This document shows positions 1-10,505 of a DNA stretch of 10,505 bases, one piece after another; the stretch's first letter is position 1; every line of letters starts with the position of its first letter. The stretch is from a virus: UHGV virus genome UHGV-1624474. One strand, given 5' to 3'. Both the position numbers and the translations under genes were made by a program. The notes beneath the pieces were generated by a model that was given only the letters and a program-made list of their open reading frames with translations, was not told the DNA's origin and searched no databases.

Positions 1-3
1 ATA

Positions 4-201
4 ATGTCGCTACCGCAGGAAACGAAAGAGGAAAAGGAATTTCGCCATTGTATATGGCTTGCAGAGAAAGAAGAACGCGAGCGAATTTACCAGACATCAA
101 TCCGACCATTCCGCAAAGCCACATATACCCACTTCCCTGAATATATCGACCCGCGCCTGCGTAATTACCGCTCACGCTATGGCGCTATCAGTAATGACTG
201 A
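4..201 (+). CDS. hypothetical prophage protein; frame is open back to nt 1, so the true start may lie upstream of the window
   Basis: 65-aa ORF ending at TGA 199-201. It is followed 7 nt later by the next start with its own Shine-Dalgarno, which fits the operon frame pattern. No recognisable motif. Confidence 0.35.
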
Positions 202-211
202 GGAATTTACC

Positions 212-376
212 ATGAGAGGACTTGCATACAATCCCGGCATTCTTCCGGCAGAAATGATTATTCGCCAACGCGTAAAGCCAATGCCATCGAGAGAGGAATT
301 GCTTAAGAGAAATAGTTTCGGTTCTGTTAATGACAACAAATATCTGAATGCGATGTGGCGGAGTGGGAAAAAATGA
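212..376 (+). CDS. small hypothetical protein (54 aa)
   Basis: ATG at 212 preceded by GAGGA (200-204) at 7-nt spacing. Stop TGA 374-376 overlaps the next start (ATGA). The ORF track lists a longer alternative frame start at 59 with no ribosome-binding site. Confidence 0.45.
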
Positions 377-972
377 AACAAATGTCACTAATTGAGATGG
401 ATGGTTTTCTGAAAGGTAAATGCATCCCAAGTGATTTAAAGGTTAACGAAACAAACGCTGAGTATCTGGTGCGTAAATTTGCTGAAGCGGAGGCCAAGAT
501 TTCGGCTCTGTCCGAAGACCACCAGAAAGCGATTGAGTCAATTAAGCAGGCTGATGCGGCTGTTAAGTTGGCACACGAGAAGTTTTCGGCGCTGGCGGCG
601 GAGAATGCGGGGCTGAAGGGTGCGTTTGATAAGCCTCAAGCATATCTATCCTGGCACGCTATTCCACCAAGCTGGGAAGACCCGCTCCCATGCGGTGAAT
701 ATCTTGATGTTCATGACGAGGCAGGACACAAAAACTCCGATGGAACTGATTGCTGGCCGGTATATGCCAAGCCAGAAATCGAGACCACAGCCACCTACGC
801 ATTCCTGGCTGAAGTACGGGCGCAGGGGGTAGAGATGTACGCAGATAACCTCGACAACGGAGCAGACGACGCAGAACGAGGTGGTTTTGATTATGCCGTT
901 AAGTTTCTACGCAGTGAAGCGTCTGGTGTACGTTTGTTCGCCGACCAGCTTCGCAAAGGAGGCAACCAGTGA
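373..972 (+). CDS. hypothetical prophage protein with predicted coiled-coil N-terminal half
   Basis: ORF track 355..972 (GTG 355). I prefer ATG 373, which overlaps the upstream stop as ATGA. Stop TGA 970-972 overlaps the next start (GTGA). Ala/Glu/Lys-rich heptad-like segment [48 protein letters not shown]. Confidence 0.65.
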
Positions 973-1829
973 GCAAGATTGATTATCAGGCACTGCGTGC
1001 TAAGGCAGAAAAAGCAACGTGTGGCGAGTGGTCTCTCGAGTATGGAGAGGGCCGATTTGATGGTGATGATGCACTAATTCATCGCGAGGCTGCTGGATAT
1101 ATTCCCATTTGCAGAATTGAAGGAGCGCATCCTGAAAGCGGTTTCGATGAAGATTTCCAAATAGAACAGCAGGCCAATGCTGAATTCATCGCCGCAGCCA
1201 ATCCGGCTACCGTCTTGGCGCTGCTGGATGAACTGGAAAGAAACCAGCAATACATCAAACGCCGCGACCAGGAGAACGAGGATATTGCGCTTACGGTTGG
1301 GAGGCTGCGCGTTGAGCTGGAAGGCAAAGACAGCAAAATAGCCAATCTTACCGCCGAACGCGATGCTCTTCGTGAAGGTGAGATGGGCGACGCTAGGCAT
1401 AGCAACACACGGGCCGCAGCTGATATCTACTTCCAACTGGTCGAGGAGTGCGAAATTCCTGCTGGCGGTTCTCTGGTCGAGTACGTTGACGATATGCGCG
1501 AGAAGCTGGAAGCCGCAGAGAAACGTCTGGCAGAACTACAATCTAAATCCATGCGACCTGTGGCGTGGATGAGAAGCGACGATATTACTACATTTGGACC
1601 AATATTCACCAAGAACGAAAACTATGCTGTTGAGCAGTGGGGAGATAATGCGGTAGCGCTTTATGCATCCCCAGTTAATTTCAAGTTGGCATGCTTCACT
1701 GACGAGAGAAATCTTAAGTACATCAATGAACGAGGAAGGGAGACATCTCTCATCTGGAGCGAAAGAAATTCAGAAAATGGTGATGTTCAACTTTTCCGCG
1801 CCGCAGGCATTCGCATCAAAGGAGAGTGA
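969..1829 (+). CDS. Ea22-like family prophage protein
   Basis: GTG start 969 with AAGGAGG at 954-960. N-terminus [21 protein letters not shown] and the motif FIAAANPATVLALLDELE match my recollection of ead/Ea22-like prophage proteins. Central coiled-coil; 286 aa. Confidence 0.7.
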   Translation: MSKIDYQALRAKAEKATCGEWSLEYGEGRFDGDDALIHREAAGYIPICRIEGAHPESGFDEDFQIEQQANAEFIAAANPATVLALLDELERNQQYIKRRDQENEDIALTVGRLRVELEGKDSKIANLTAERDALREGEMGDARHSNTRAAADIYFQLVEECEIPAGGSLVEYVDDMREKLEAAEKRLAELQSKSMRPVAWMRSDDITTFGPIFTKNENYAVEQWGDNAVALYASPVNFKLACFTDERNLKYINERGRETSLIWSERNSENGDVQLFRAAGIRIKGE

Positions 1830-1830
1830 T

Positions 1831-2118
1831 ATGGCAACTTTGCAGGAATTAATCGACCTGACGCCGGAACAGGAAAAAGCGTGGAATCGCCTTGTGAAGG
1901 CTGTAAAGGATTTCAGGGCATCCGGAGGAAAGTTTTATAGCGTCCTGGACACGCTGAGCGCATACAACGGTGAGCACGTTGCCAGCATTGATAACGATAA
2001 GGGCTACCACACTGCAAGCGTCTATATGCCTAGCATTGATGCGCCAGGGCTAACCAGTTGGGCTGATGATTGGCACGGCATCACGCTGAAAGATGGCGTT
2101 GAAGTGGATGAGGACTAA
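1831..2118 (+). CDS. hypothetical prophage protein (95 aa)
   Basis: ATG 1831 lies 1 nt after the upstream stop, with AAAGGAGAG at 1818-1826. The ORF track's 1663 start is an in-frame upstream extension overlapping the previous gene and is rejected. Confidence 0.65.
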   Translation: MATLQELIDLTPEQEKAWNRLVKAVKDFRASGGKFYSVLDTLSAYNGEHVASIDNDKGYHTASVYMPSIDAPGLTSWADDWHGITLKDGVEVDED

Positions 2119-2121
2119 CCC

Positions 2122-2814
2122 ATGACCACTATTACCAAAGAGCGACTACTGACAATCAAGCAGTGGCGCGAAACATACGGACCTGGTAGCAACGTTGTAC
2201 TGCCAGCAGAAGAAGCGGAAGAACTGGCACGAATTGCACTGGCATCGCTGGAAGCAGAACCGGTGGCGTGGATGCGTGATGACGCAGATGGTCGTGAGTA
2301 TAACGCTCGCAATGAATTTTCTGATGGAGGGAAAGGAATTCCGCTATATCGTGTGCCGCCAGCGCCGGAAGTGCCGGAAGAAATATATTGGCAGGATGCG
2401 CCAGTTGAAGGCAGCATCAAAGCGGCTGCATACGCTACAGACTGGAACGCCTGCCGCGCCGCCATGCTTCATGGTGCCAAACCTGTAAGCCAGACTTACA
2501 AGTTAAACGAGCTGTCGGGCAACTCTCCGGTAACTCCGGATGGTTGGATAAGCTGTAGTGAGCAGATGCCTGTAATCGGCGAGCTAAATTGGAGAACTAG
2601 TTTTCCTTTACTGGTTACGTGTGAGATCGGCGTTATACCTGCTTATTACGGCTTTGTGAGCGTTAATGGTGATAGGCATTATGGCTTTATGGAGAGTCTT
2701 AAATACGGAGACGATAACGGCAACCATCCTCAAACTAATGAATATGGTCTGATTAGCAATGTCACACACTGGATGCCTCTACCAGAACCGCCTCAGGAGG
2801 TTAACCGTGGCTAA
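2122..2814 (+). CDS. DUF551-like prophage protein
   Basis: ATG 2122 with GAGGA at 2110-2114. C-terminal segment WISCSEQMP...VTHWMPLPEPP resembles the DUF551 hallmark. N-terminal EAEPVAWMRDD module is shared with the Ea22-like protein. Confidence 0.7.
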   Translation: MTTITKERLLTIKQWRETYGPGSNVVLPAEEAEELARIALASLEAEPVAWMRDDADGREYNARNEFSDGGKGIPLYRVPPAPEVPEEIYWQDAPVEGSIKAAAYATDWNACRAAMLHGAKPVSQTYKLNELSGNSPVTPDGWISCSEQMPVIGELNWRTSFPLLVTCEIGVIPAYYGFVSVNGDRHYGFMESLKYGDDNGNHPQTNEYGLISNVTHWMPLPEPPQEVNRG

Positions 2815-3088
2815 TCTGCAACTTGCCGTTAAAGGTGAATACTTCGATGCCATGATTCGCGGGGAGAAAACGGAAGAGTATCGCTTGTGTAATGACTACT
2901 GGAATAAGCGAATTATGTTCCGGGAGTATGACCGCCTGATTATCACGAAGGGATATCCGAAGCGCGACGACTTCAGTCGCAGAATTGATGTCCCGTATGA
3001 CGGATATGAAATCAAGACAATCACACATCCCCACTTCGGCGATAAACCGGTAAAGGTATACGCGATAAAGGTGAATATCAATTGCTAA
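2807..3088 (+). CDS. ASCH/DUF3850-like (PUA-fold) small protein, tentative
   Basis: GTG 2807 with AGGAGG at 2795-2800, overlapping the upstream gene by 8 nt. Pattern GEYFDAMIRGEKTEEYR...YDRLIITKGY resembles ASCH-type domains. Track start 2759 lacks a ribosome-binding site. Confidence 0.5.
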   Translation: MANLQLAVKGEYFDAMIRGEKTEEYRLCNDYWNKRIMFREYDRLIITKGYPKRDDFSRRIDVPYDGYEIKTITHPHFGDKPVKVYAIKVNINC

Positions 3089-3112
3089 ATTAGTAGCATA
3101 GCATAAAGATGC

Positions 3113-3136
3113 TTGCATTAATGAAGTGTGTATAAT
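3113..3136 (+). promoter_or_regulatory. candidate sigma70-type promoter for the AT-rich small-ORF insert
   Basis: Perfect -10 TATAAT at 3131-3136 with TG-rich sequence immediately upstream. The nearest -35-like hexamer, TTGCAT 3113-3118, is at a suboptimal 12-nt spacing. Confidence 0.2.
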
Positions 3137-3199
3137 AACGCCTCATCAATAGTAAACTACTGAAATAGCAAAAAATGCATATTAAAGAGGATTCGAAAA

Positions 3200-3391
3200 T
3201 TGAAAATGTTCATGCAAATAGACAGACGCATAGATATTAATGGCAATTCATACTTAGTTAGATGCGAAGAGAGGCCTAACGGTGAGTGGCGTGTATATGA
3301 TATTGACCGTAAGATCAATATCAGCACCATGAACAAAGACACTGCCTTTGATGAATGGAAAGCTGAAGCTAAAAAACAACATAATTCGTAG
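3200..3391 (+). CDS. small hypothetical protein (63 aa) in AT-rich insert
   Basis: TTG 3200 lies 9 nt after AAAGAGG (3184-3190); ATG 3206 is an alternative. Stop TAG 3389-3391, followed by a hairpin terminator. No recognisable domain. Confidence 0.35.
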   Translation: MKMFMQIDRRIDINGNSYLVRCEERPNGEWRVYDIDRKINISTMNKDTAFDEWKAEAKKQHNS

Positions 3392-3433
3392 AATTACAAA
3401 AACCCTAACCAATTGATGGATTTCTTTTATCTG

Positions 3434-3460
3434 AACTCGCTACGGCGAGTTTTGTTTTAT
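3434..3460 (+). terminator. candidate intrinsic terminator
   Basis: 7-bp stem AACTCGC/GCGAGTT (3434-3440 / 3445-3451) with loop TACG, followed by TTGTTTTAT. Confidence 0.4.
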
Positions 3461-3471
3461 GGAGATGATAA

Positions 3472-3639
3472 ATGCACTTCCGAGTCACAGGTGAATGGAA
3501 TGGAGAGCCATTCAACAGGGTTATCGAAGCAGAGGACATCAACGACTGCTATAACCACTGGATGATATGGGCGCAGATAGCACATGCAGACGTAACCAAT
3601 ATTCGAATTGAAGAACTGAAAGAACACCAAACCGCCTGA
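3472..3639 (+). CDS. small hypothetical protein (55 aa)
   Basis: ATG 3472 with GGAG at 3461-3464 (7-nt spacing). Translation MHFRVTGEWNGEPFNRVIEAEDINDCYNHWMIWAQIAHADVTNIRIEELKEHQTA. Stop TGA 3637-3639 sits in the loop of the following terminator. Absent from the ORF track because it is under 60 aa. Confidence 0.4.
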   Translation: MHFRVTGEWNGEPFNRVIEAEDINDCYNHWMIWAQIAHADVTNIRIEELKEHQTA

Positions 3640-3654
3640 TGGCGGTTTTTTATT
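3630..3654 (+). terminator. rho-independent terminator
   Basis: Stem AACCGCC (3630-3636) / GGCGGTT (3641-3647) with loop TGAT, immediately followed by TTTTTTATT. Confidence 0.65.
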
Positions 3655-3696
3655 GCCTGATTTGCAGGTTCGATTCCCTATTCGGAGATAGCACTC

Positions 3697-3897
3697 ATGC
3701 AACACGAACTACAGCCTGATTCACTGGTTGATTTGAAATTCATCATGGCCGATACTGGCTTTGGTAAAACCTTCATCTACGACCGTATTAAGTCCGGCGA
3801 CTTGCCAAAAGCCAAAGTTATCCACGGGCGAGCAAGATGGTTATATCGTGACCATTGTGAATTCAAAAATAAGCTCTTAAGCCGCGCCAATGGGTAA
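3697..3897 (+). CDS. AlpA-family phage transcriptional regulator / excisionase (Xis-like)
   Basis: 66 aa. ATG 3697 with GGAGA at 3684-3688. Helix-turn-helix core LVDLKFIMADTGFGKTFIYDRIKSGDLPKAKVIHGRARWLYRD is typical of the AlpA/Xis (Phage_AlpA) family. Sits directly upstream of the integrase on the same strand. Confidence 0.85.
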   Translation: MQHELQPDSLVDLKFIMADTGFGKTFIYDRIKSGDLPKAKVIHGRARWLYRDHCEFKNKLLSRANG

Positions 3898-4109
3898 AAT
3901 AGCGGGTAAAATATTTCTCACATCTAAAAAACACCATTCCAATCAATCCCCTGCCGCCTCAAGTAGATGTCTGCAGGGGACACCATTTACACCTCTCCTG
4001 AAATCTACCATATCCCATAAAAAGCCTTTATAATCAGTATATACCCTTACTTATGTTACTCAAATAGTCGCCGTGATTCTCCTCAGGGGTACGTAAATCA
4101 AGTCACATT

Positions 4110-4159
4110 TGGGGGCCTATTTAGGGGCACATATTGGTCAATCTATTGCGAGGCCCCCA
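4110..4159 (+). promoter_or_regulatory. inverted repeat overlapping the integrase ribosome-binding site
   Basis: TGGGGGCCT (4110-4118) and its reverse complement AGGCCCCCA (4151-4159), separated by 32 nt. The right arm covers the int Shine-Dalgarno GAGG (4150-4153), 2 nt before ATG 4161. A perfect TATAAT is at 4029-4034 upstream. Confidence 0.3.
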
Positions 4160-4160
4160 G

Positions 4161-5351
4161 ATGCCACTGACAGCTCGACAAGTTGAAACAGCCAAACCCA
4201 AAGATAAAATTTATAAAATTGCCGATGGTGGTGGGCTCTACCTGCAGGTCAATCCTAACGGCTCAAAGTACTGGCGAATGAAGTACCACTATGCAGGGAA
4301 GGAAAAGAAACTATCATTTGGCACCTATCCAACTATTACATTGGCTGAAGCTCGCAAACGTCGGGATGAAGCCAAGAAAATACATGCCGATGGTAAAGAC
4401 CCCGGTGAAGTCAAGAAAGCTGAAAATCTTGAGAAAAACCTTTCTGAAGGAAGAACTTTTGCCACAATCGCCACCGAGTGGTACAACGCAAAAGTTTCAG
4501 GCTGGTCGGCCAGCTACGCTGATTATGTCGACAGAGCATTCAAAAATAATGTGTTTCCCTACATTGGAAACAGACCCATCAGTGATATCGAACCTCTTGA
4601 ACTTCTCGCAGTTCTTCAGCGTATTGAAAGCCGCGGAGCCTGCGAGCTAGCTAATAAAGTTCGCCAACGATGTGGTGAAGTGTTTCGGTATGCCATTGTT
4701 ACAGGTAGGGCTCGATACAATCCAGCCTCTGATCTGGTTATAGCAATGAAAAGCCATAAACGAACACATTACCCATTCCTGCTTCCTCCTGAACTACCAG
4801 AGTTTTTGTACAAACTCGAAAACTACACCGGCAGTATTGTAACCCGTGAAGCTACAAAATTGTTGATGCTCACAGGGCTGAGGACCGTAGAATTACGTAT
4901 GGGGGAATGGTGTGAGATCGATTTTTCCCAAAAAATATGGGAAGTGCCTCCGACCCGGATGAAAATGAGGAAGGAACATATTGTTCCCCTCTCAAATCAG
5001 GCAATTCGGTCTCTCCAAATCCTTAAAGAACTGACGGGAAGATACAGATACATCTTTGCCGGAAGAAATGATGTTAACAGGCCTATCAGCGATGCAAGCG
5101 TCAATATGGTTTTGAAGAAGATTGGCTATGACAAAAAAGCTACCGGGCATGGTTTTCGTCATACAATGAGTACTATTCTACATGAGAAAGGATTCAATAG
5201 TGCATGGATTGAAATGCAACTTGCACATACGGACAAAAACAGCATTCGTGGTACATACAACCATGCTCGTTACCTTGAAGGAAGACGAGAAATGATGCAA
5301 TGGTACGCTGACTACCTTGATGCTATTCGAAAAGATTCCCCAGCTATATAA
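4161..5351 (+). CDS. int: tyrosine site-specific integrase, P4-type (N-terminal DUF4102 arm-binding domain)
   Basis: N-terminus MPLTARQVETAKPKDKIYKIADGGGLYLQVNPNGSKYWRMKYHYAGKEKKLSFGTYP is the DUF4102 signature. C-terminal catalytic boxes TGLRTVELR, HGFRHT, LAH and RGTYNHARY (nucleophilic Tyr) are present. Track start 4134 (TTG) is an upstream extension; ATG 4161 gives the canonical N-terminus. Confidence 0.92.
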   Translation: MPLTARQVETAKPKDKIYKIADGGGLYLQVNPNGSKYWRMKYHYAGKEKKLSFGTYPTITLAEARKRRDEAKKIHADGKDPGEVKKAENLEKNLSEGRTFATIATEWYNAKVSGWSASYADYVDRAFKNNVFPYIGNRPISDIEPLELLAVLQRIESRGACELANKVRQRCGEVFRYAIVTGRARYNPASDLVIAMKSHKRTHYPFLLPPELPEFLYKLENYTGSIVTREATKLLMLTGLRTVELRMGEWCEIDFSQKIWEVPPTRMKMRKEHIVPLSNQAIRSLQILKELTGRYRYIFAGRNDVNRPISDASVNMVLKKIGYDKKATGHGFRHTMSTILHEKGFNSAWIEMQLAHTDKNSIRGTYNHARYLEGRREMMQWYADYLDAIRKDSPAI

Positions 5352-5441: not shown

Positions 5442-5913
5442 TCACTCCTCAATCAGTTTCAGCACATTGTTGACCTGTCTCCAGTATTCGATACAACCAT
5501 CAGTCAGCCTGCTGGCACGACGTTGCGACAGACCCGTTGCCTCACACATGACTTCCACGGCTTCCCACTTCTGTTCTGTCGTCAGAATTTCGGTCCAGAG
5601 CTACCTGAAGTACCTCCTTATCCAGCATGGTTTTGGCGAGCAGCGTCTTGAGGGGTCGTTCTCCTCTTCAGGTGTCTTAAGCCGCTTTACCTCAGGGACT
5701 TCTATTCCACCAAACTTCGGCGCCCGGTGTAGAAAGTAGCGTCTGAAATAGCATTCTTGCGGCAGAGTTCCCGGGCAGAAACGCCGGCTACGGCCTCGCG
5801 GAGGATACTGATAATCTGTTCGTCGGAAAACACTTCTTCATGGGGATACCCTAACGTTGCTGATGAAGACATTACTTACATCGTGGTATATTAATAAATG
5901 TGGGAGCAGGTCA
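5442..5913 (-). pseudogene. IS3-family (IS407-group-like) insertion sequence remnant: frameshifted orfA plus first codons of orfB, truncated
   Basis: Minus-strand ATG at 5872 gives MSSSATLGYPHEEVFSDEQIISILREAVAGVSARELCRKNAISDATFY, then a stop. Two shifted frames continue with KFGGIEVPEVKRLKTPEEEND, LLAKTMLDKEVLQVAL and EVMCEATGLSQRRASRL, matching the conserved IS3 OrfA pattern. Candidate terminal repeat TGACCTGCTCCCA on the minus strand at 5913-5901. No DDE domain follows. Confidence 0.7.
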
Positions 5914-6019: not shown

Positions 6020-6058
6020 AGTAAGTATTTTTGTTAACACTTTTGTAAGGATACTTTT

Positions 6059-7108
6059 TTGAGCAGCGAAAAAAAAAAGAAAGTTGGGTTAATGCTTGGG
6101 AATGGATTCACTATTGACCTCCTTAGCAAAATGGACAAACTTGATATAATTGACCCATCCGATCTATTTAAATATGGCGATATGGTTAAGTGGCCCGCCA
6201 CTGGGGAACCCGGTTTTCTTTCTGCTCGATATTGCCCAAATCTATGGCGATTGGGTGCAAGACCCGGGCTAAATAGAACCGCATCATATCAAATAATAGA
6301 AGAATTAATTACAGTAATAAATTTATATGCAACTCTACCTCCAGAAACAATAAAGAAGAAAAATCAGGCAAGTCATACTCCATTGTCAAACATTTACATT
6401 TATGCTTATCAAGAATTAGTTTCATATTTAAGGGAGCTTTTCATTGATTATAACGAAAAAGTTTCCTCTGAAGATCTACGTAAGTTAGAAAGTGGCTGGC
6501 GAGACTATTTGATGAAACTGGACAAAAACGAAAACATAGAACGAGTTGATATTATAACTTATAACTATGACATTTATCTTGAGCGCCTTCTTGATTTACT
6601 TAATATCAGATTTGACATCCCAAACATATCTGACGGGAATGCAAAGTTTAAAATATACAAACCACATGGCTCTATTAGCTTCTTGTATGAAGGATATATG
6701 TCAAAAGATAACTACAATATCCAAAAAGAGTTATCTTTAAATAATGGCGACATATCAAAATTCGAATGCCGGCATGAAAACTTAAGCCTTTACATGCCAT
6801 TAATTCCAATAATACCGCCAGCAGGAGAAGCTCATCGTTATGCCCAAAACTGGGCTAATTCAATTAAAGAGTCTATTGAAGCGACGATGGAGTCGTACAA
6901 CCCAAACGATGATTTCTTCATTTGTGGTATTTCATATTGGCATGTTGATCGTGCCGAAATTGATGCAATAATACGCAAAATAAACAGTGACGTTAATGTT
7001 AGAATGATTAATCCAGGAAATGTTGATGGTTTAAGTGCTATACTTGGAATGGTATTTAATAGTTATGTTCATCATTCATCATCTGAAGTTTTAAAGGAGC
7101 TTGCCTAA
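6059..7108 (+). CDS. SIR2-like (SIR2_2 / DHS-like NAD-binding fold) protein; putative NAD+-consuming defense effector
   Basis: 349 aa. TTG 6059 with AAGGA (6047-6051) at 7-nt spacing; ATG 6092 is an alternative start. Glycine loop LMLGNGFTID (aa 11-20), motif IITYNYDIYLE (aa 165-175; codons 6551-6583) and KPHGSI (aa 201-206; His codon 6665-6667) match the bacterial SIR2 hallmarks GAGxS / TTNYD / K-x-HGS. Hand-counted sample lines are about 25-40% G+C. Confidence 0.78.
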   Translation: MSSEKKKKVGLMLGNGFTIDLLSKMDKLDIIDPSDLFKYGDMVKWPATGEPGFLSARYCPNLWRLGARPGLNRTASYQIIEELITVINLYATLPPETIKKKNQASHTPLSNIYIYAYQELVSYLRELFIDYNEKVSSEDLRKLESGWRDYLMKLDKNENIERVDIITYNYDIYLERLLDLLNIRFDIPNISDGNAKFKIYKPHGSISFLYEGYMSKDNYNIQKELSLNNGDISKFECRHENLSLYMPLIPIIPPAGEAHRYAQNWANSIKESIEATMESYNPNDDFFICGISYWHVDRAEIDAIIRKINSDVNVRMINPGNVDGLSAILGMVFNSYVHHSSSEVLKELA

Positions 7109-8136
7109 TGGAAATTTTAAAGCGGGATTCAAACAGTATTAATATTGCTTCCTTTTGGGAGGGCTTTTCATTAGGCAAATTTAATTTTGATCCTCCTTAT
7201 CAAAGAGATAGTGTTTGGGATGAAGAAAAACAATCATTCTTTATAGATAGTATACTACGTAACTATCCAATTCCCCCTATATTTCTCCATCAAAAAATTG
7301 ATGATGACACCGGAAGAATCACGTTTGAAGTTGTTGACGGAAAACAGAGGCTCACTGCCATTGTTAATTTTATCAATGGCCAAATAACATCAGCAAGTGA
7401 GGAAGAAGATGATGAATTGACTGGTGTGTTTTTTTCCGATTTATCAACTTCTAAATATGCAGAAGTTAAAAAATTATTCTGGCGATATCAGATGCCTATA
7501 GAGTACATTGATACTGAAGACGAAAGAATAATTGATAGTATTTTCGACAGGCTTAACAGAAATGGTGAACGACTTAACGGACAAGAGTTAAGGAATGCCA
7601 AATATCATGATACTGATTTTTATAAAAAAATAGTAGAATATTCACAACGTGAATATTGGCAAAAATTGCTAGAGCACGTTGATAAGAAGAGAATGGAAGA
7701 CAAAGAGTTTGTATCTGAATTGATATTCACGATCCTTGAGGATGAAGTATTTGGTGCAACTCAAGACATAATTGATAGTCTTTACGAGAAGTATTGCACC
7801 AAGAATGGTGATGAAACAAATGAGGCATTTTCTATTTTTGAAAAAACAACTGACTATTTAGTTGATATGAATATTGATTTCAAAAGTCATAAAGCAAGCG
7901 GTGTTAGTCACTTATACGGAATCTTCAGTTATGCACTTTATTGCAGTAACAATAATGTTCCTGTAGAAGAAGCGTCAAATAGACTTTCCACCTTCCTGGA
8001 TAGCTTGTGGGAAAAAGATACACAACATAATGCGGAATTAAGAAGAGAATATAGAAAAACTATGAGTTCTAGCACAAAAAGCAAAACCCAACGCTCACGT
8101 AGAATTGAAGTGCTTTTAAATCTACTTCACGATTAA
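7108..8136 (+). CDS. DUF262 (ParB/Srx-like NTPase) domain protein; no recognisable DUF1524/HNH nuclease module
   Basis: 342 aa. ATG 7108 overlaps the upstream TAA by 1 nt (TAATG), with AAAGGAG at 7093-7099. DUF262 motifs FDPPYQRDSVWDEEK (YQR codons 7198-7206), IDSILRNYPIPPIFL and VVDGKQRLTAI (about 7327-7359). The C-terminal half is helical with no obvious H-N-H catalytic pattern. Confidence 0.85.
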   Translation: MEILKRDSNSINIASFWEGFSLGKFNFDPPYQRDSVWDEEKQSFFIDSILRNYPIPPIFLHQKIDDDTGRITFEVVDGKQRLTAIVNFINGQITSASEEEDDELTGVFFSDLSTSKYAEVKKLFWRYQMPIEYIDTEDERIIDSIFDRLNRNGERLNGQELRNAKYHDTDFYKKIVEYSQREYWQKLLEHVDKKRMEDKEFVSELIFTILEDEVFGATQDIIDSLYEKYCTKNGDETNEAFSIFEKTTDYLVDMNIDFKSHKASGVSHLYGIFSYALYCSNNNVPVEEASNRLSTFLDSLWEKDTQHNAELRREYRKTMSSSTKSKTQRSRRIEVLLNLLHD

Positions 8137-8149
8137 ACTATATAATAGT

Positions 8150-8178
8150 AGGAGTGAACTTCGCTCCTGCTTTTCTCA
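8150..8178 (+). terminator. weak candidate terminator after the DUF262 gene
   Basis: 5-bp stem AGGAG (8150-8154) / CTCCT (8164-8168) with a 9-nt loop, followed by GCTTTTCTC. Confidence 0.25.
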
Positions 8179-8788
8179 CTCTATCTTTTATTATTTCTCT
8201 TTGAGATATGAAGTAATACTTTAAAAATATAAATCACATTCATCGCATATGATATTGTGATATCCCCACATGGTGCATGTTCGTAGTCTATCCCTCAGGC
8301 AAATAATAATAGAAAGTTAACCGAATCAGTTATACTCTCACCCAGATATTAGGATGGCTAAATCAACATGAGTGCAAGGATCGTCTTGGGGGAAACATTG
8401 GCACTGTGTGATGGCTCATCATTAAAAAATCAGTTTATATCAAAAGTAAATGATTACAGAAAAACTATATTTATAGATAAAGAAAAAAGCATTTAATTAC
8501 TTCTTAAATATGATAATCACACTCTGTGAAATGATACTTTGACTTACTTCCAATTATTAAACCACGAGATTCATGCATTACCATAATCATTTAAGAAAAC
8601 AAAAGTCCGGCCTTTGCTCTTATCAACCACTACAATTCATAAAGAAATCCTGTTGATGCAAAAAAAAGACATTGATCACAATATCGAGTTAATCATTTGA
8701 AAGTTTATTACTCACATTGAAAAATTTCTCAGTATCAGATATACCAACGTTGAGGGCTTCCCTCTTACATCTCAAAAGGATAACTATC

Positions 8789-8917
8789 ATGGGTCTTAAA
8801 CCAGGTCCAAAACCAATTGCTAAATCGACAGGAAAACCGGATCAACGCCGACGAGATAATAAAGATACTCCTGGCAACACTCCGGGACTAAAGCCAAGTA
8901 AGTCCACCGGGAAGTAA
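8789..8917 (+). CDS. small Lys/Pro/Gly-rich protein (42 aa) with internal repeats
   Basis: ATG 8789 with AAGGA (8776-8780) at 8-nt spacing. Translation MGLKPGPKPIAKSTGKPDQRRRDNKDTPGNTPGLKPSKSTGK has GLKP and KSTGK each twice. -35-like TTGAAA at 8717-8722. Track start 8717 is an upstream TTG extension. Confidence 0.4.
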   Translation: MGLKPGPKPIAKSTGKPDQRRRDNKDTPGNTPGLKPSKSTGK

Positions 8918-8922
8918 AAAAT

Positions 8923-8951
8923 CAGGGTATAAATAAGTTATTTATACCCTG
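8923..8951. terminator. perfect palindromic hairpin between convergent genes; terminator for the minus-strand gene, possibly bidirectional
   Basis: CAGGGTATAAATAA (8923-8936), G, TTATTTATACCCTG (8938-8951): 14-bp perfect arms. On the minus strand the hairpin is followed by ATTTTTTA (complement of 8915-8922). Confidence 0.6.
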
Positions 8952-8965
8952 ACTACATATCCAGT

Positions 8966-9861
8966 TTACTGAAGGTGTTTCTGCAGCCAGATGCACGTTC
9001 CTTCTGTATCATACGCCTGTGCCCCATACCCTGTAGCAAGCAAAGTCTCTGGTAAATACTCGTCATATTTATCCAGGTACTTGTCAGGAACAACTGCAGC
9101 AAGCTCAAACTCTGAAGGTAACCCCGACAATAACATTTTCTTAAGTGCACGCTGAACAGAGGCAACGCCTGAGCCCTCTACCTCTATCACACCTGCAAAT
9201 GAACTGGCTTTAAAGCCACAACGTATAAGCAGGGACGTAATTGTATTGACAATTTTATCCCCCATCCACGGGATCACGTAGCAGTTCTGACCACTGGCAA
9301 TAAAACAGTGATTTTGTAGATTGTAGCGTTGGAAGTTGTCACTTCCTTCCGCGAAGAGGCTTCTGGCTGCGGCATCAGCATAATCAACTCTCTTGTTGCC
9401 TACCGCGATACGGTAATCATTTTCCCTGTAGATAGCGAGCATCTCCTGGCGAACAACATCATGAACAGACATCCCGCTACCACTGAATAGTGGTGGCTGC
9501 CCGCCTTTAGTCGCCTCAACATAGATAGCTTTTTTTCAACCTCGATCTCTGTCACTTTCCAGCGCTGTCCGCCGAAGATGATGTGCTGCTCCGGCAAAAG
9601 TGGGGAGTCTACAGGCACTGTGCCAAGAGTTCGGTTTCCCGTTACAATGCGAAACTCCTCAGATGTATTGAATACGGCATAAAACGTGTAGTGATTAATC
9701 AGCTTCTCCCCCTCAGCCCCGACAACTATTTAACCGCTGGCTAGTTGAGTGAGCAGGCCACATGTCCCCATATGTTTAAGCAGACTTTTGAAGTCATTTA
9801 TATCCACATTCCGGAACGGACCTGTCTGGCAAAGTTGTGACCAGAGCTGATCGGCACGAAC
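8966..9861 (-). pseudogene. decayed C-terminal fragment of a larger gene of unknown function (5' end removed by the IS insertion, in-frame stop, homopolymer frameshift)
   Basis: Minus-strand frame is open from the IS end (9861) to an in-frame TAA at 9732-9730, then continues to a frame break at the A7 run (plus-strand T7, 9530-9536). One extra A would join it to the 168-aa ORF 8966-9472. About 50% G+C. Reconstructed sequence about 295 aa; no family recognised. Confidence 0.6.
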
Positions 9862-10505
9862 TGAACCGCCCCGGGTTTCCTGGAGAGTGTTTTATCTGTG
9901 AACTCAGGCTGCCAGATCATCGTTTCCGATGGAAGCATAATAAGCTTTTTCTGCTTCTGCCGGAGGAGTATGGCCCAGCCTTCCCAGCAATCGTCGATTG
10001 TTATACCAGTCCACCCACGTTAGTGTGGCCAGTTCCACTTCTGCACGGTTTTTCCAGCTCTTACGGTGTATTACCTCCGCTTTGTAAAGACCATTGATGC
10101 TCTCAGCCATCGCGTTGTCATACGAGTCGCCTGTACTCCCTGTTGATGCCAGTAATCCGGCTTCTTTTAGTCGCTCCGTATAGGCCAGTGACACATACTG
10201 AGAGCCTTTATCGCTGTGATGGATGGTGCCAGACGGACGACGGGCCCACAACGCCTGCTCCAGCGCATCCAGCACGAATGTCGTTTCCATAGACGATGAG
10301 ACCCGCCACCCCACGATGTATCCGGCAAACACATCAATGATAAACGCCACATAGACGAAGCCCTGCCATGTGCTGACGTAAGTAAAATCAGCCACCCACA
10401 GCTGGTCAGGTCGTTCTGCCACGAACTGACGGTTTACGCGGTCGCCTGCGGCAACGGCTTTCCGGCTGATGGTCGTACGGACCTTTTTACCCCGGAGAAC
10501 ACCGG
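9862..10505 (-). mobile_element. IS3-family insertion sequence (IS629/IS3411-like), right end; continues beyond the window
   Basis: Terminal sequence TGAACCGCCCCGGG at 9862-9875 matches the inverted-repeat start I recall for IS629/IS1203/IS3411. The OrfB stop is 42 bp inside it. Confidence 0.75.
9904..10505 (-). CDS. IS3-family transposase OrfB (DDE integrase core), N-terminus outside the window
   Basis: Translation has NRQF-x-A-x-x-PDQLWVADFTYV, HSDKGSQYVS and DSYDNAMAESINGLYKAEVIH, the canonical IS3 DDE-region motifs. The frame is open from 10422 to the window edge at 10505 (GVLRGKKVRTTISRKAVAAGDRVNRQF...). Confidence 0.85.
   Translation of the reverse strand, partial: GVLRGKKVRTTISRKAVAAGDRVNRQFVAERPDQLWVADFTYVSTWQGFVYVAFIIDVFAGYIVGWRVSSSMETTFVLDALEQALWARRPSGTIHHSDKGSQYVSLAYTERLKEAGLLASTGSTGDSYDNAMAESINGLYKAEVIHRKSWKNRAEVELATLTWVDWYNNRRLLGRLGHTPPAEAEKAYYASIGNDDLAA

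Follow-up and report, generated by a model that had tools for sequence, protein, structure and literature searches.

The virus genome UHGV-1624474 (10,505 nucleotides in the UHGV collection; this whole stretch is referred to below as the window) carries, at positions 6059-8136, two overlapping genes that encode a SIR2-fold protein and a DUF262 protein. These genes are co-inherited in distantly related bacteria as a fixed two-gene unit. We propose, with a probability of roughly 0.55, that the pair is a two-protein abortive-infection anti-phage module in which the DUF262 protein is the sensor and would activate the SIR2 protein, a presumed hydrolase of nicotinamide adenine dinucleotide (NAD+; NADase).

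The gene pair as a conserved unit

Gene 1 (6059-7108, plus strand) starts with TTG and encodes a SIR2-fold protein of 349 amino acids, the presumed NADase effector. Gene 2 (7108-8136, plus strand) starts with ATG and encodes 342 amino acids, comprising an NsnA-like DUF262 domain and a helical C-terminal domain without a nuclease. The TAA stop of gene 1 (7106-7108) and the ATG of gene 2 (7108-7110) have one base in common within the sequence TAATG (7106-7110, plus strand), an overlap that couples translation of the two genes. Two ribosome-binding signals were read from the sequence, a Shine-Dalgarno-like AAGGA at 6047-6051 (plus strand), 7 nucleotides 5' of the gene 1 TTG, and a Shine-Dalgarno AAGGAG at 7094-7099 (plus strand), which lies within the end of gene 1, 8 nucleotides 5' of the gene 2 ATG. 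An initial annotation, made from the letters of the window, had described two AT-rich open reading frames (ORFs) that share one base, each with a Shine-Dalgarno sequence, and this description proved accurate in position, strand and composition; the two genes have a guanine-plus-cytosine (GC) content of 32-35%, below the 44-54% of the flanks.

The RefSeq annotation contains the same two frames, the TTG start of gene 1 included. This start is favored over an internal ATG at 6092, since the stretch that precedes the GNG loop (described below) is equally long in the gene 1 homologues and the first beta-strand of the gene 1 structural model lies at residues 7-13. Full-length homologues in the database numbered 691 for gene 1 and 1509 for gene 2, and hundreds of such homologues for both proteins place the pair far beyond chance. 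Consensus scans for promoters and terminators gave no relevant site above shuffled background. A weak terminator-like element, an AGGAG...CTCCT inverted repeat followed by GCTTTT (8150-8174, plus strand), was spotted by eye; it is tentative, and was missed by the consensus scan on account of its 9-nucleotide loop.

Surveying a single genome for each species yielded 80 loci, from the Gamma-, Beta-, Alpha- and Epsilonproteobacteria, Desulfobacterota, Bacteroidota, Bacillota, Verrucomicrobiota, Planctomycetota, Nitrospirota and Calditrichota. A full-length DUF262 ORF lay directly 3' of the SIR2 gene, on the same strand, in 73 of them. The DUF262 gene ran off the contig end in 5 further loci, the contig stopped right after gene 1 in one, and the sole locus that lacked a DUF262 gene had a truncated gene 1, such that the DUF262 gene directly follows the SIR2 gene in 78 of the 79 assessable loci. 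The two ORFs overlapped or were separated by no more than 4 nucleotides in 69 of the 73 related loci. Pairwise distances among the gene 1 proteins correlated with those among the gene 2 proteins (r = 0.82), a value reached by none of 999 permutations. Genes 1 and 2, read as a single operon in the initial annotation, are co-inherited and constitute a fixed two-gene unit that is conserved and co-localized in other genomes.

No third conserved gene emerged from all-against-all clustering of the flanking ORFs in the 80 loci, nor did these loci show a small antitoxin-like protein or a DNA-binding repressor that consistently accompanied the pair. Small recurrent ORF clusters (about 105-120 amino acids) were considered as a third gene and rejected, as they were antisense ORFs inside genes 1 and 2. 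The one exception in the clustering was the C5 cytosine methylases, present in 28 of the 80 loci.

Predicted functions of the SIR2 and DUF262 proteins

Gene 1 had been assigned to the SIR2 family on the basis of the motifs LGNGFT (residues 13-18), ITYNYD (166-171) and KPHGS (201-205), all of which were found. Conservation was assessed in an alignment of 48 homologues with about 40% identity. The glycine loop G14-N15-G16 (6098-6106, plus strand), which follows the first beta-strand and is presumed to bind the dinucleotide, is invariant. Within N169-Y170-D171 of ITYNYD (6563-6571, plus strand), Y170 and D171 are invariant, and N169, the candidate catalytic Asn, is retained in at least 90% of the homologues. 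All five residues of K201-P202-H203-G204-S205 (6659-6673, plus strand), including the candidate catalytic His, are invariant. The glycine loop, the Asn/Asp motif and the His thus occur in the order of an NAD pocket, and we take N169 and H203 to be the equivalents of the catalytic residues of characterized enzymes.

The SIR2 assignment was borne out by fold and not by the Pfam profile. Against SIR2_2 (PF13289), gene 1 scored 18.2 bits over residues 165-220 only, below the cut-off of 24.5; some of its homologues have a precomputed PF13289 match. An AlphaFold2 model was built from the homologue alignment (predicted local distance difference test score [pLDDT] 90, predicted template modeling score 0.90) and compared with the Protein Data Bank (PDB) using Foldseek. 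All 44 matches at an expectation value (E) of 1e-3 or below were SIR2 proteins, and the top matches were all defense SIR2 proteins. The best was 8sub_B, the SIR2 protein of SIR2-HerA/Nezha (E 5e-10, template modeling [TM] score 0.55), and the defense matches also included 8w9l, 9v0g, 8btp and 8k9a. The ranking ran from SIR2-HerA/Nezha through PsSIR2, KomBC/HAM-SIR2 and ThsA to DSR2, with eukaryotic sirtuins much lower. For both proteins of the pair, a sequence search of the PDB gave no real match, so that the fold search alone was informative there, and an NCBIfam scan gave nothing meaningful. The RefSeq product name of gene 1 is either 'SIR2 family protein' or 'hypothetical protein'. Judged by its predicted structure, gene 1 is a divergent SIR2-fold protein whose nearest structural relatives are NAD-consuming defense effectors, and it is presumably an NAD+ hydrolase.

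To delimit the gene 1 family further, its profile was run against 1.84 billion representative proteins. It is compact, with 96 clusters at E of 1e-30 or below, nearly all of 330-350 amino acids, and no fusion to any other domain was present among the best 150 of 573 representative matches. Gene 1 is a bare 349-residue SIR2 domain that belongs to this separate family. It also matched AbiH (PF14253) below threshold (23 bits, cut-off 30.9, E 9.7e-5, residues 99-311), which would indicate a distant resemblance only.

The distance of gene 1 from characterized SIR2 NADases (a sub-threshold Pfam score, TM-scores of about 0.5 and 11-15% identity) would also suit a SIR2 fold with other chemistry, such as ADP-ribosylation or deacylation, directed at the DUF262 protein, DNA or another target. 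Sirtuin deacylases are among its fold matches, and the weak match to AbiH, for which we know of no mechanism, points the same way. Alternatively, the pair could be mainly a toxin-antitoxin-like addiction module that stabilizes the island or a neighboring restriction-modification system, a role that the tight restriction-modification linkage described below would fit. We consider such explanations unlikely. The best structural matches are all defense NADases and deacetylases fall far below them (E 1e-3 versus 5e-10), the residues of GNG, NYD and KPHGS, named as bacterial SIR2 hallmarks in the initial annotation, are invariant with the exception of N169, and an addiction module is further disfavored by the lack of a conserved antitoxin-like partner or repressor in the surveyed loci.

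Gene 2 scored 96.2 bits against Pfam GmrSD_N/DUF262 (PF03235; cut-off 33.2, E 3.7e-27), in agreement with its earlier assignment to DUF262, and the two motifs on which that assignment had been based, PPYQRDSVW (residues 29-37) and DGKQRL (77-82), were found. Three motifs define DUF262: QRxxxW, DGxQR and FxxxN (PMC12065111). In an alignment of 43 homologues of gene 2, Q32, R33 and W37 of motif I (QRxxxW; 7201-7218, plus strand), D77-G78-K79-Q80-R81 of motif II (7336-7350, plus strand), the predicted nucleoside triphosphate (NTP)-binding center, and motif III (FxxxN, F146-D-R-L-N150; 7543-7557, plus strand) are invariant. Gene 2 is a clear DUF262/GmrSD_N protein with intact NTPase motifs.

In the AlphaFold2 model of gene 2 (pLDDT 87), the N-terminal half resembles ParB and residues 170-342 consist of helices only. 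Its best Foldseek matches were BrxU (7p9k, the top match), ParB bound to cytidine diphosphate or triphosphate, Noc and SspE (6jiv). Pfam gave no match to DUF1524 or HNH, no His-Me nuclease domain was found at the C-terminus of gene 2, and the BrxU and SspE chains that it matched have 557-580 amino acids, whereas the protein itself has 342. Gene 2 was specifically similar to a protein that the initial annotation had not brought in, NsnA of the Menshen system: residues 11-340 of gene 2 aligned with positions 51-379 of the 385-position PADLOC profile (E 1.9e-39). Gene 2 also matched the PADLOC profile PD-T4-2_A (E 1.4e-27), and both profiles matched all 43 members of the gene 2 family. The product of gene 2 is presumed to be a sensor of DNA or of its modification.

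In the mechanism that we propose, the DUF262-ParBDB protein of gene 2 would bind DNA, and its ParB-like NTP switch would recognize a feature of the invading DNA, most plausibly the state of cytosine modification. The protein would then activate its SIR2 partner, which would hydrolyze NAD+, and the infected cell would no longer support phage growth. We infer the defense role of the pair, the direction from sensor to effector, the contact between the two proteins, the kind of trigger and the hydrolysis of NAD+.

Several observations weigh against an anti-phage sensor-effector module. The E. coli gene 1 scores too low for the curated thresholds of SIR2_2 and AbiH alike, its PADLOC SIR2 matches are weak (E about 1e-3) and to generic models, and against solved SIR2 structures it reaches TM-scores of no more than about 0.5-0.57, which marks the family as divergent. 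The catalytic equivalence of N169 and H203 comes from motif order and not from superposition. The best 150 of the 573 representative matches to gene 1 included no SIR2-DUF262 fusion. The promoter scan 5' of gene 1 was at chance level. Of 72,556 plasmid records 1 contained the pair, of 50,697 phage genomes none did, and of 2.9 million viral contigs only 5 did. The island that carries it in E. coli is decayed, with insertion sequence (IS) fragments and a helicase pseudogene, and activity of the E. coli copy is not guaranteed. Finally, what is known here of the family comes from sequences and structural models.

Known defense systems and neighboring cytosine methylases

Both proteins and both family alignments were compared with PADLOC-DB v2.0.0 (2023), and no named system of this composition was found in that release; the matches overall were to generic SIR2 models, NsnA and PD-T4-2_A only. 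No description of a SIR2 and DUF262 pair was found in the searched literature, and the two RefSeq accessions were not found in the accessible portion of the DefensePredictor paper and its supplements. The view that this pairing has no recognized name therefore held within these sources. A check of WonAB and GrwAB from Vibrio cholerae showed no relation to the pair.

Among the closest known systems is Menshen, which is NsnABC and was reportedly described by Millman et al. in 2022. NsnA is the proposed sensor of that system (PMC12065111). Gene 2 aligns with NsnA over its full length, and shares with it the ParB-DUF262 domain, the helical DNA-binding domain of ParBDB type and the same three motifs. 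In contrast to Menshen, the pair has neither the NsnB ATPase nor the inPIN-nuclease effector NsnC, its partner protein is a SIR2 protein encoded 5' of the DUF262 gene, and its implied output is NAD+ depletion rather than nuclease action. No NsnB or NsnC gene lies beside the pair, and in the window the helicase pseudogene comes after gene 2, separated from it by 830 bp that contain no substantial ORF.

PD-T4-2 is said to be a two-gene system, reported by Vassallo et al. in 2022. Like the pair, it contains a stand-alone DUF262 protein without DUF1524, and gene 2 matches its component PD-T4-2_A. PD-T4-2 is listed under the DUF262 and HEPN (PF18735) domains (PMC10952713). Gene 1, however, has a SIR2 fold and gave no HEPN or PD-T4-2_B match in Pfam or PADLOC.

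A third two-gene system with a DUF262 protein that lacks DUF1524 is Dazbog, or DzbAB, also reportedly from the work of Millman et al. in 2022. Neither E. coli protein matched the DzbA or DzbB profiles at E up to 1, and no Dzb profile was present among the 19 families matched by the gene 1 family or among the 25 listed of the 26 matched by the gene 2 family. The order of the genes also differs, as the DUF262 gene is second in the pair and first in Dazbog (Stokar-Avihail et al., bioRxiv 10.1101/2022.08.27.505566). Dazbog has an abortive-infection phenotype and is toxic when the C5 methylase of phage SPR methylates CCGG (bioRxiv 10.1101/2022.08.27.505566), a trigger that parallels the CCGG-core 5-methylcytosine (m5C) restriction-modification neighborhood of the pair.

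Gene 1 shares the order of the glycine loop, Asn and His motifs with SIR2-HerA/Nezha, ThsA, DSR1/DSR2, the SIR2-APAZ proteins associated with prokaryotic Argonautes (pAgo) and KomC of Kongming. Unlike these systems, the pair has no conserved HerA, ThsB/TIR, SLOG, Argonaute or HAM1 partner and no long DSR C-terminal domain; it differs from SPARSA in having no short pAgo with APAZ, its only conserved neighbor being the DUF262 gene. Gene 2 has the same N-terminal DUF262 NTPase fold as GmrSD, BrxU and SspE, whereas in each of them the polypeptide also includes a DUF1524 His-Me nuclease at its C-terminus. Since gene 2 has no nuclease, output would be delegated to the separate SIR2 protein. DUF262 proteins sense DNA modifications, glucosyl-hydroxymethylcytosine (glc-hmC) in GmrSD and phosphorothioate in SspE (PMC10952713, PMC12065111). 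The pair resembles, but belongs to none of, Menshen, PD-T4-2, Dazbog, GmrSD/BrxU/SspE, SIR2-HerA, Thoeris, DSR and SPARSA. It is a new combination of known modules and not a new principle.

Outside E. coli, the commonest neighbors of the pair were genes of type II restriction-modification systems, a linkage that had not been part of the initial annotation. A C5 cytosine methylase (PF00145) within 3 kb defined the 28 loci mentioned above, and the proportion was 20 of 48 among loci with at least 3 kb of sequence on both sides (methylase-linked loci: L003, L010, L022, L023, L025, L026, L031, L035, L039, L044, L045, L047, L048, L052, L053, L056, L057, L060, L062-L065, L067, L076-L078, L080). The 29 methylase ORFs were concentrated near the pair: 26 were less than 1.5 kb away, the other 3 fell at 1.5-3 kb, and the zone of 3-6 kb had none, despite the greater amount of sequence available in the outer zone. 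When the neighbors were scanned with PADLOC, all 25 families listed were cytosine-methylase models. Methylase-linked loci occupied at least 8 separate places on the gene 1 tree, and the restriction-modification module lay 5' of the pair in some loci and 3' in others. In one of them (L010, 5995-10132, Endozoicomonas sp. ISHI1), the SIR2, DUF262 and C5 methylase genes and an unannotated ORF of 230 amino acids make up a compact insert flanked by the housekeeping genes purK and dprA. Joint movement of the pair and a restriction-modification module, as a cassette of four genes, is suggested by this arrangement.

The methylases are parts of type II modules, some with Vsr, which was present in at least 5 of the methylase-linked loci. 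The accompanying nucleases were of the NgoMIV family (7 loci and one more at a contig end), the Cfr10I/Bse634I family (7 loci), NaeI (3 loci), BsaWI (2 loci), HNH (4 loci), NgoFVII (1 locus) and EcoO109I (1 locus), and 3 loci had a nuclease without family assignment. NgoMIV and NaeI recognize GCCGGC, Cfr10I and Bse634I recognize RCCGGY and BsaWI recognizes WCCGGW, the CCGG core being common to all. By these site specificities, most of the methylase neighbors (roughly 19-24 of 28) are CCGG-core type II modules. Fourteen of the methylases formed one cluster at 55% identity or more while their nucleases were NgoMIV, NaeI or HNH, which indicates that the methylase, and not the nuclease, is the constant partner.

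The CCGG trigger of Dazbog and the CCGG-core neighborhood of the pair together suggest that gene 2 may read the state of cytosine methylation at CCGG-core sites. By extension of this analogy, the pair might be an epigenetic reader-effector, in which the DUF262-ParBDB protein would read CCGG-core C5-methylation and gate the SIR2 NADase, and so provide a second abortive arm to systems that act on GCCGGC, RCCGGY or WCCGGW. We put this forward tentatively, as a possibility that is more doubtful than the sensor-effector module itself. One version of it would have the pair catch phages that escape restriction by their own CCGG methylation, much as phage SPR triggers Dazbog. A model in which methylation is the trigger fits the stand-alone loci, and would require the host pattern to be tolerated in the methylase-linked loci.

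The converse model, in which CCGG-core sites marked by the neighboring C5 methylase would count as self and unmethylated sites would lead the DUF262 protein to fire the SIR2 protein, would resemble the pairing of SspE with SspABCD, or else BREX and DISARM. The frequency of the methylase beside the pair, its short distance from it and its constancy where the nucleases differ would agree with this model, as would the precedent of SspE, a DUF262 protein that depends on modification of host DNA. It fits the methylase-linked loci but not the stand-alone ones: in the E. coli window and at least 51 other loci (at least 52 of the 80) no methylase lies beside the pair. A sensor of unmethylated DNA would be autotoxic there, yet both ORFs are intact in the 27 E. 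coli genomes described below. Nearly all methylase-linked loci moreover have a complete conventional restriction enzyme, so that the methylase is already partnered and self-marking would be redundant. We judge this model improbable, slightly more so than a SIR2 protein of other chemistry or an addiction module. That the pair instead assists housekeeping or DNA repair in connection with m5C, for instance in handling m5C deamination together with Vsr, is very improbable, since the C5 methylases in 28 loci and the Vsr in at least 5 of these that speak for it are offset by the sporadic, island-borne occurrence of the pair beside an integrase and IS debris, by the lack of methylase or Vsr at most loci and by the two domain families themselves, whose known members come mainly from conflict systems.

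The E. coli island and implications of the pair

The pair was present in 27 of 5426 complete E. coli genomes (0.5%), always on the chromosome and at 99.6% identity or more, with both ORFs intact. The laboratory strain E. coli ATCC 8739 is among the strains that carry it (99.9% identity). The island has the order tRNA-Arg, tyrosine integrase, IS fragment, SIR2 gene, DUF262 gene, helicase pseudogene and IS fragments. Such an accessory and patchy distribution on an integrase-bearing island is typical of defense cargo.

The window contains no intact tRNA. Coordinate mapping placed the last 15 nucleotides of tRNA-Arg, an attachment (att) remnant, at 3971-3985 (plus strand), where identity to the island-bearing E. 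coli begins. The tyrosine integrase (4134-5351, plus strand; Pfam Phage_integrase and Arm-DNA-bind_3) lies directly 3' of tRNA-Arg in other E. coli. Between it and gene 1 is an IS3-family transposase fragment (5467-5872), annotated in RefSeq as frameshifted and incomplete, and an IS1222 ribosomal frameshift element (5498-5614, minus strand; Rfam, 98.5 bits) was the only structured RNA found by an Rfam scan of the window. On the far side of gene 2, the stretch at 8137-8965 (about 830 bp, 32% GC) has no substantial ORF, its sole ORF being one of 66 amino acids at 8717-8917, and could be what is left of a neighbor gene that has decayed. Next comes a DEAD/DEAH-box helicase pseudogene, represented by its C-terminal part (8966-9870, minus strand), which according to RefSeq has an internal stop and lacks its N-terminus and which may be the wreck of another defense gene on the island, and then by an IS3-family (IS1203-like) transposase fragment (9904-10422, minus strand).

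Positions 1-3970 contain early-left genes of a lambdoid prophage that are not in the 27 island-bearing complete E. coli genomes, among them an Ead/Ea22-like gene (969-1829), a DUF551 gene (2122-2814) and a small excisionase/AlpA-like ORF (3697-3897). The beginning of identity at the end of tRNA-Arg (3971), with lambdoid genes to its left, suggests tandem integration at the same att site, with the prophage to the left of 3971 and the island to the right.

If the pair protects against phage, it would add a widespread module, found in at least 80 species of many phyla, to the defense repertoire. A single NsnA-type DUF262 sensor would then be seen to serve outputs of three kinds, namely the nuclease arm of Menshen, the HEPN domain of PD-T4-2 and a SIR2 NADase, and would offer a clean natural experiment in the exchange of sensors and effectors. 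The repeated coupling to CCGG-core m5C systems provides a concrete and cheap hypothesis as to what the stand-alone DUF262 proteins of Dazbog, Menshen and PD-T4-2 sense. Should the pair prove to read methylation and gate a NADase, it would represent a hitherto undescribed class, in which NAD+ depletion depends on methylation in a specific sequence context, and its presence in E. coli ATCC 8739 makes genetics directly possible.

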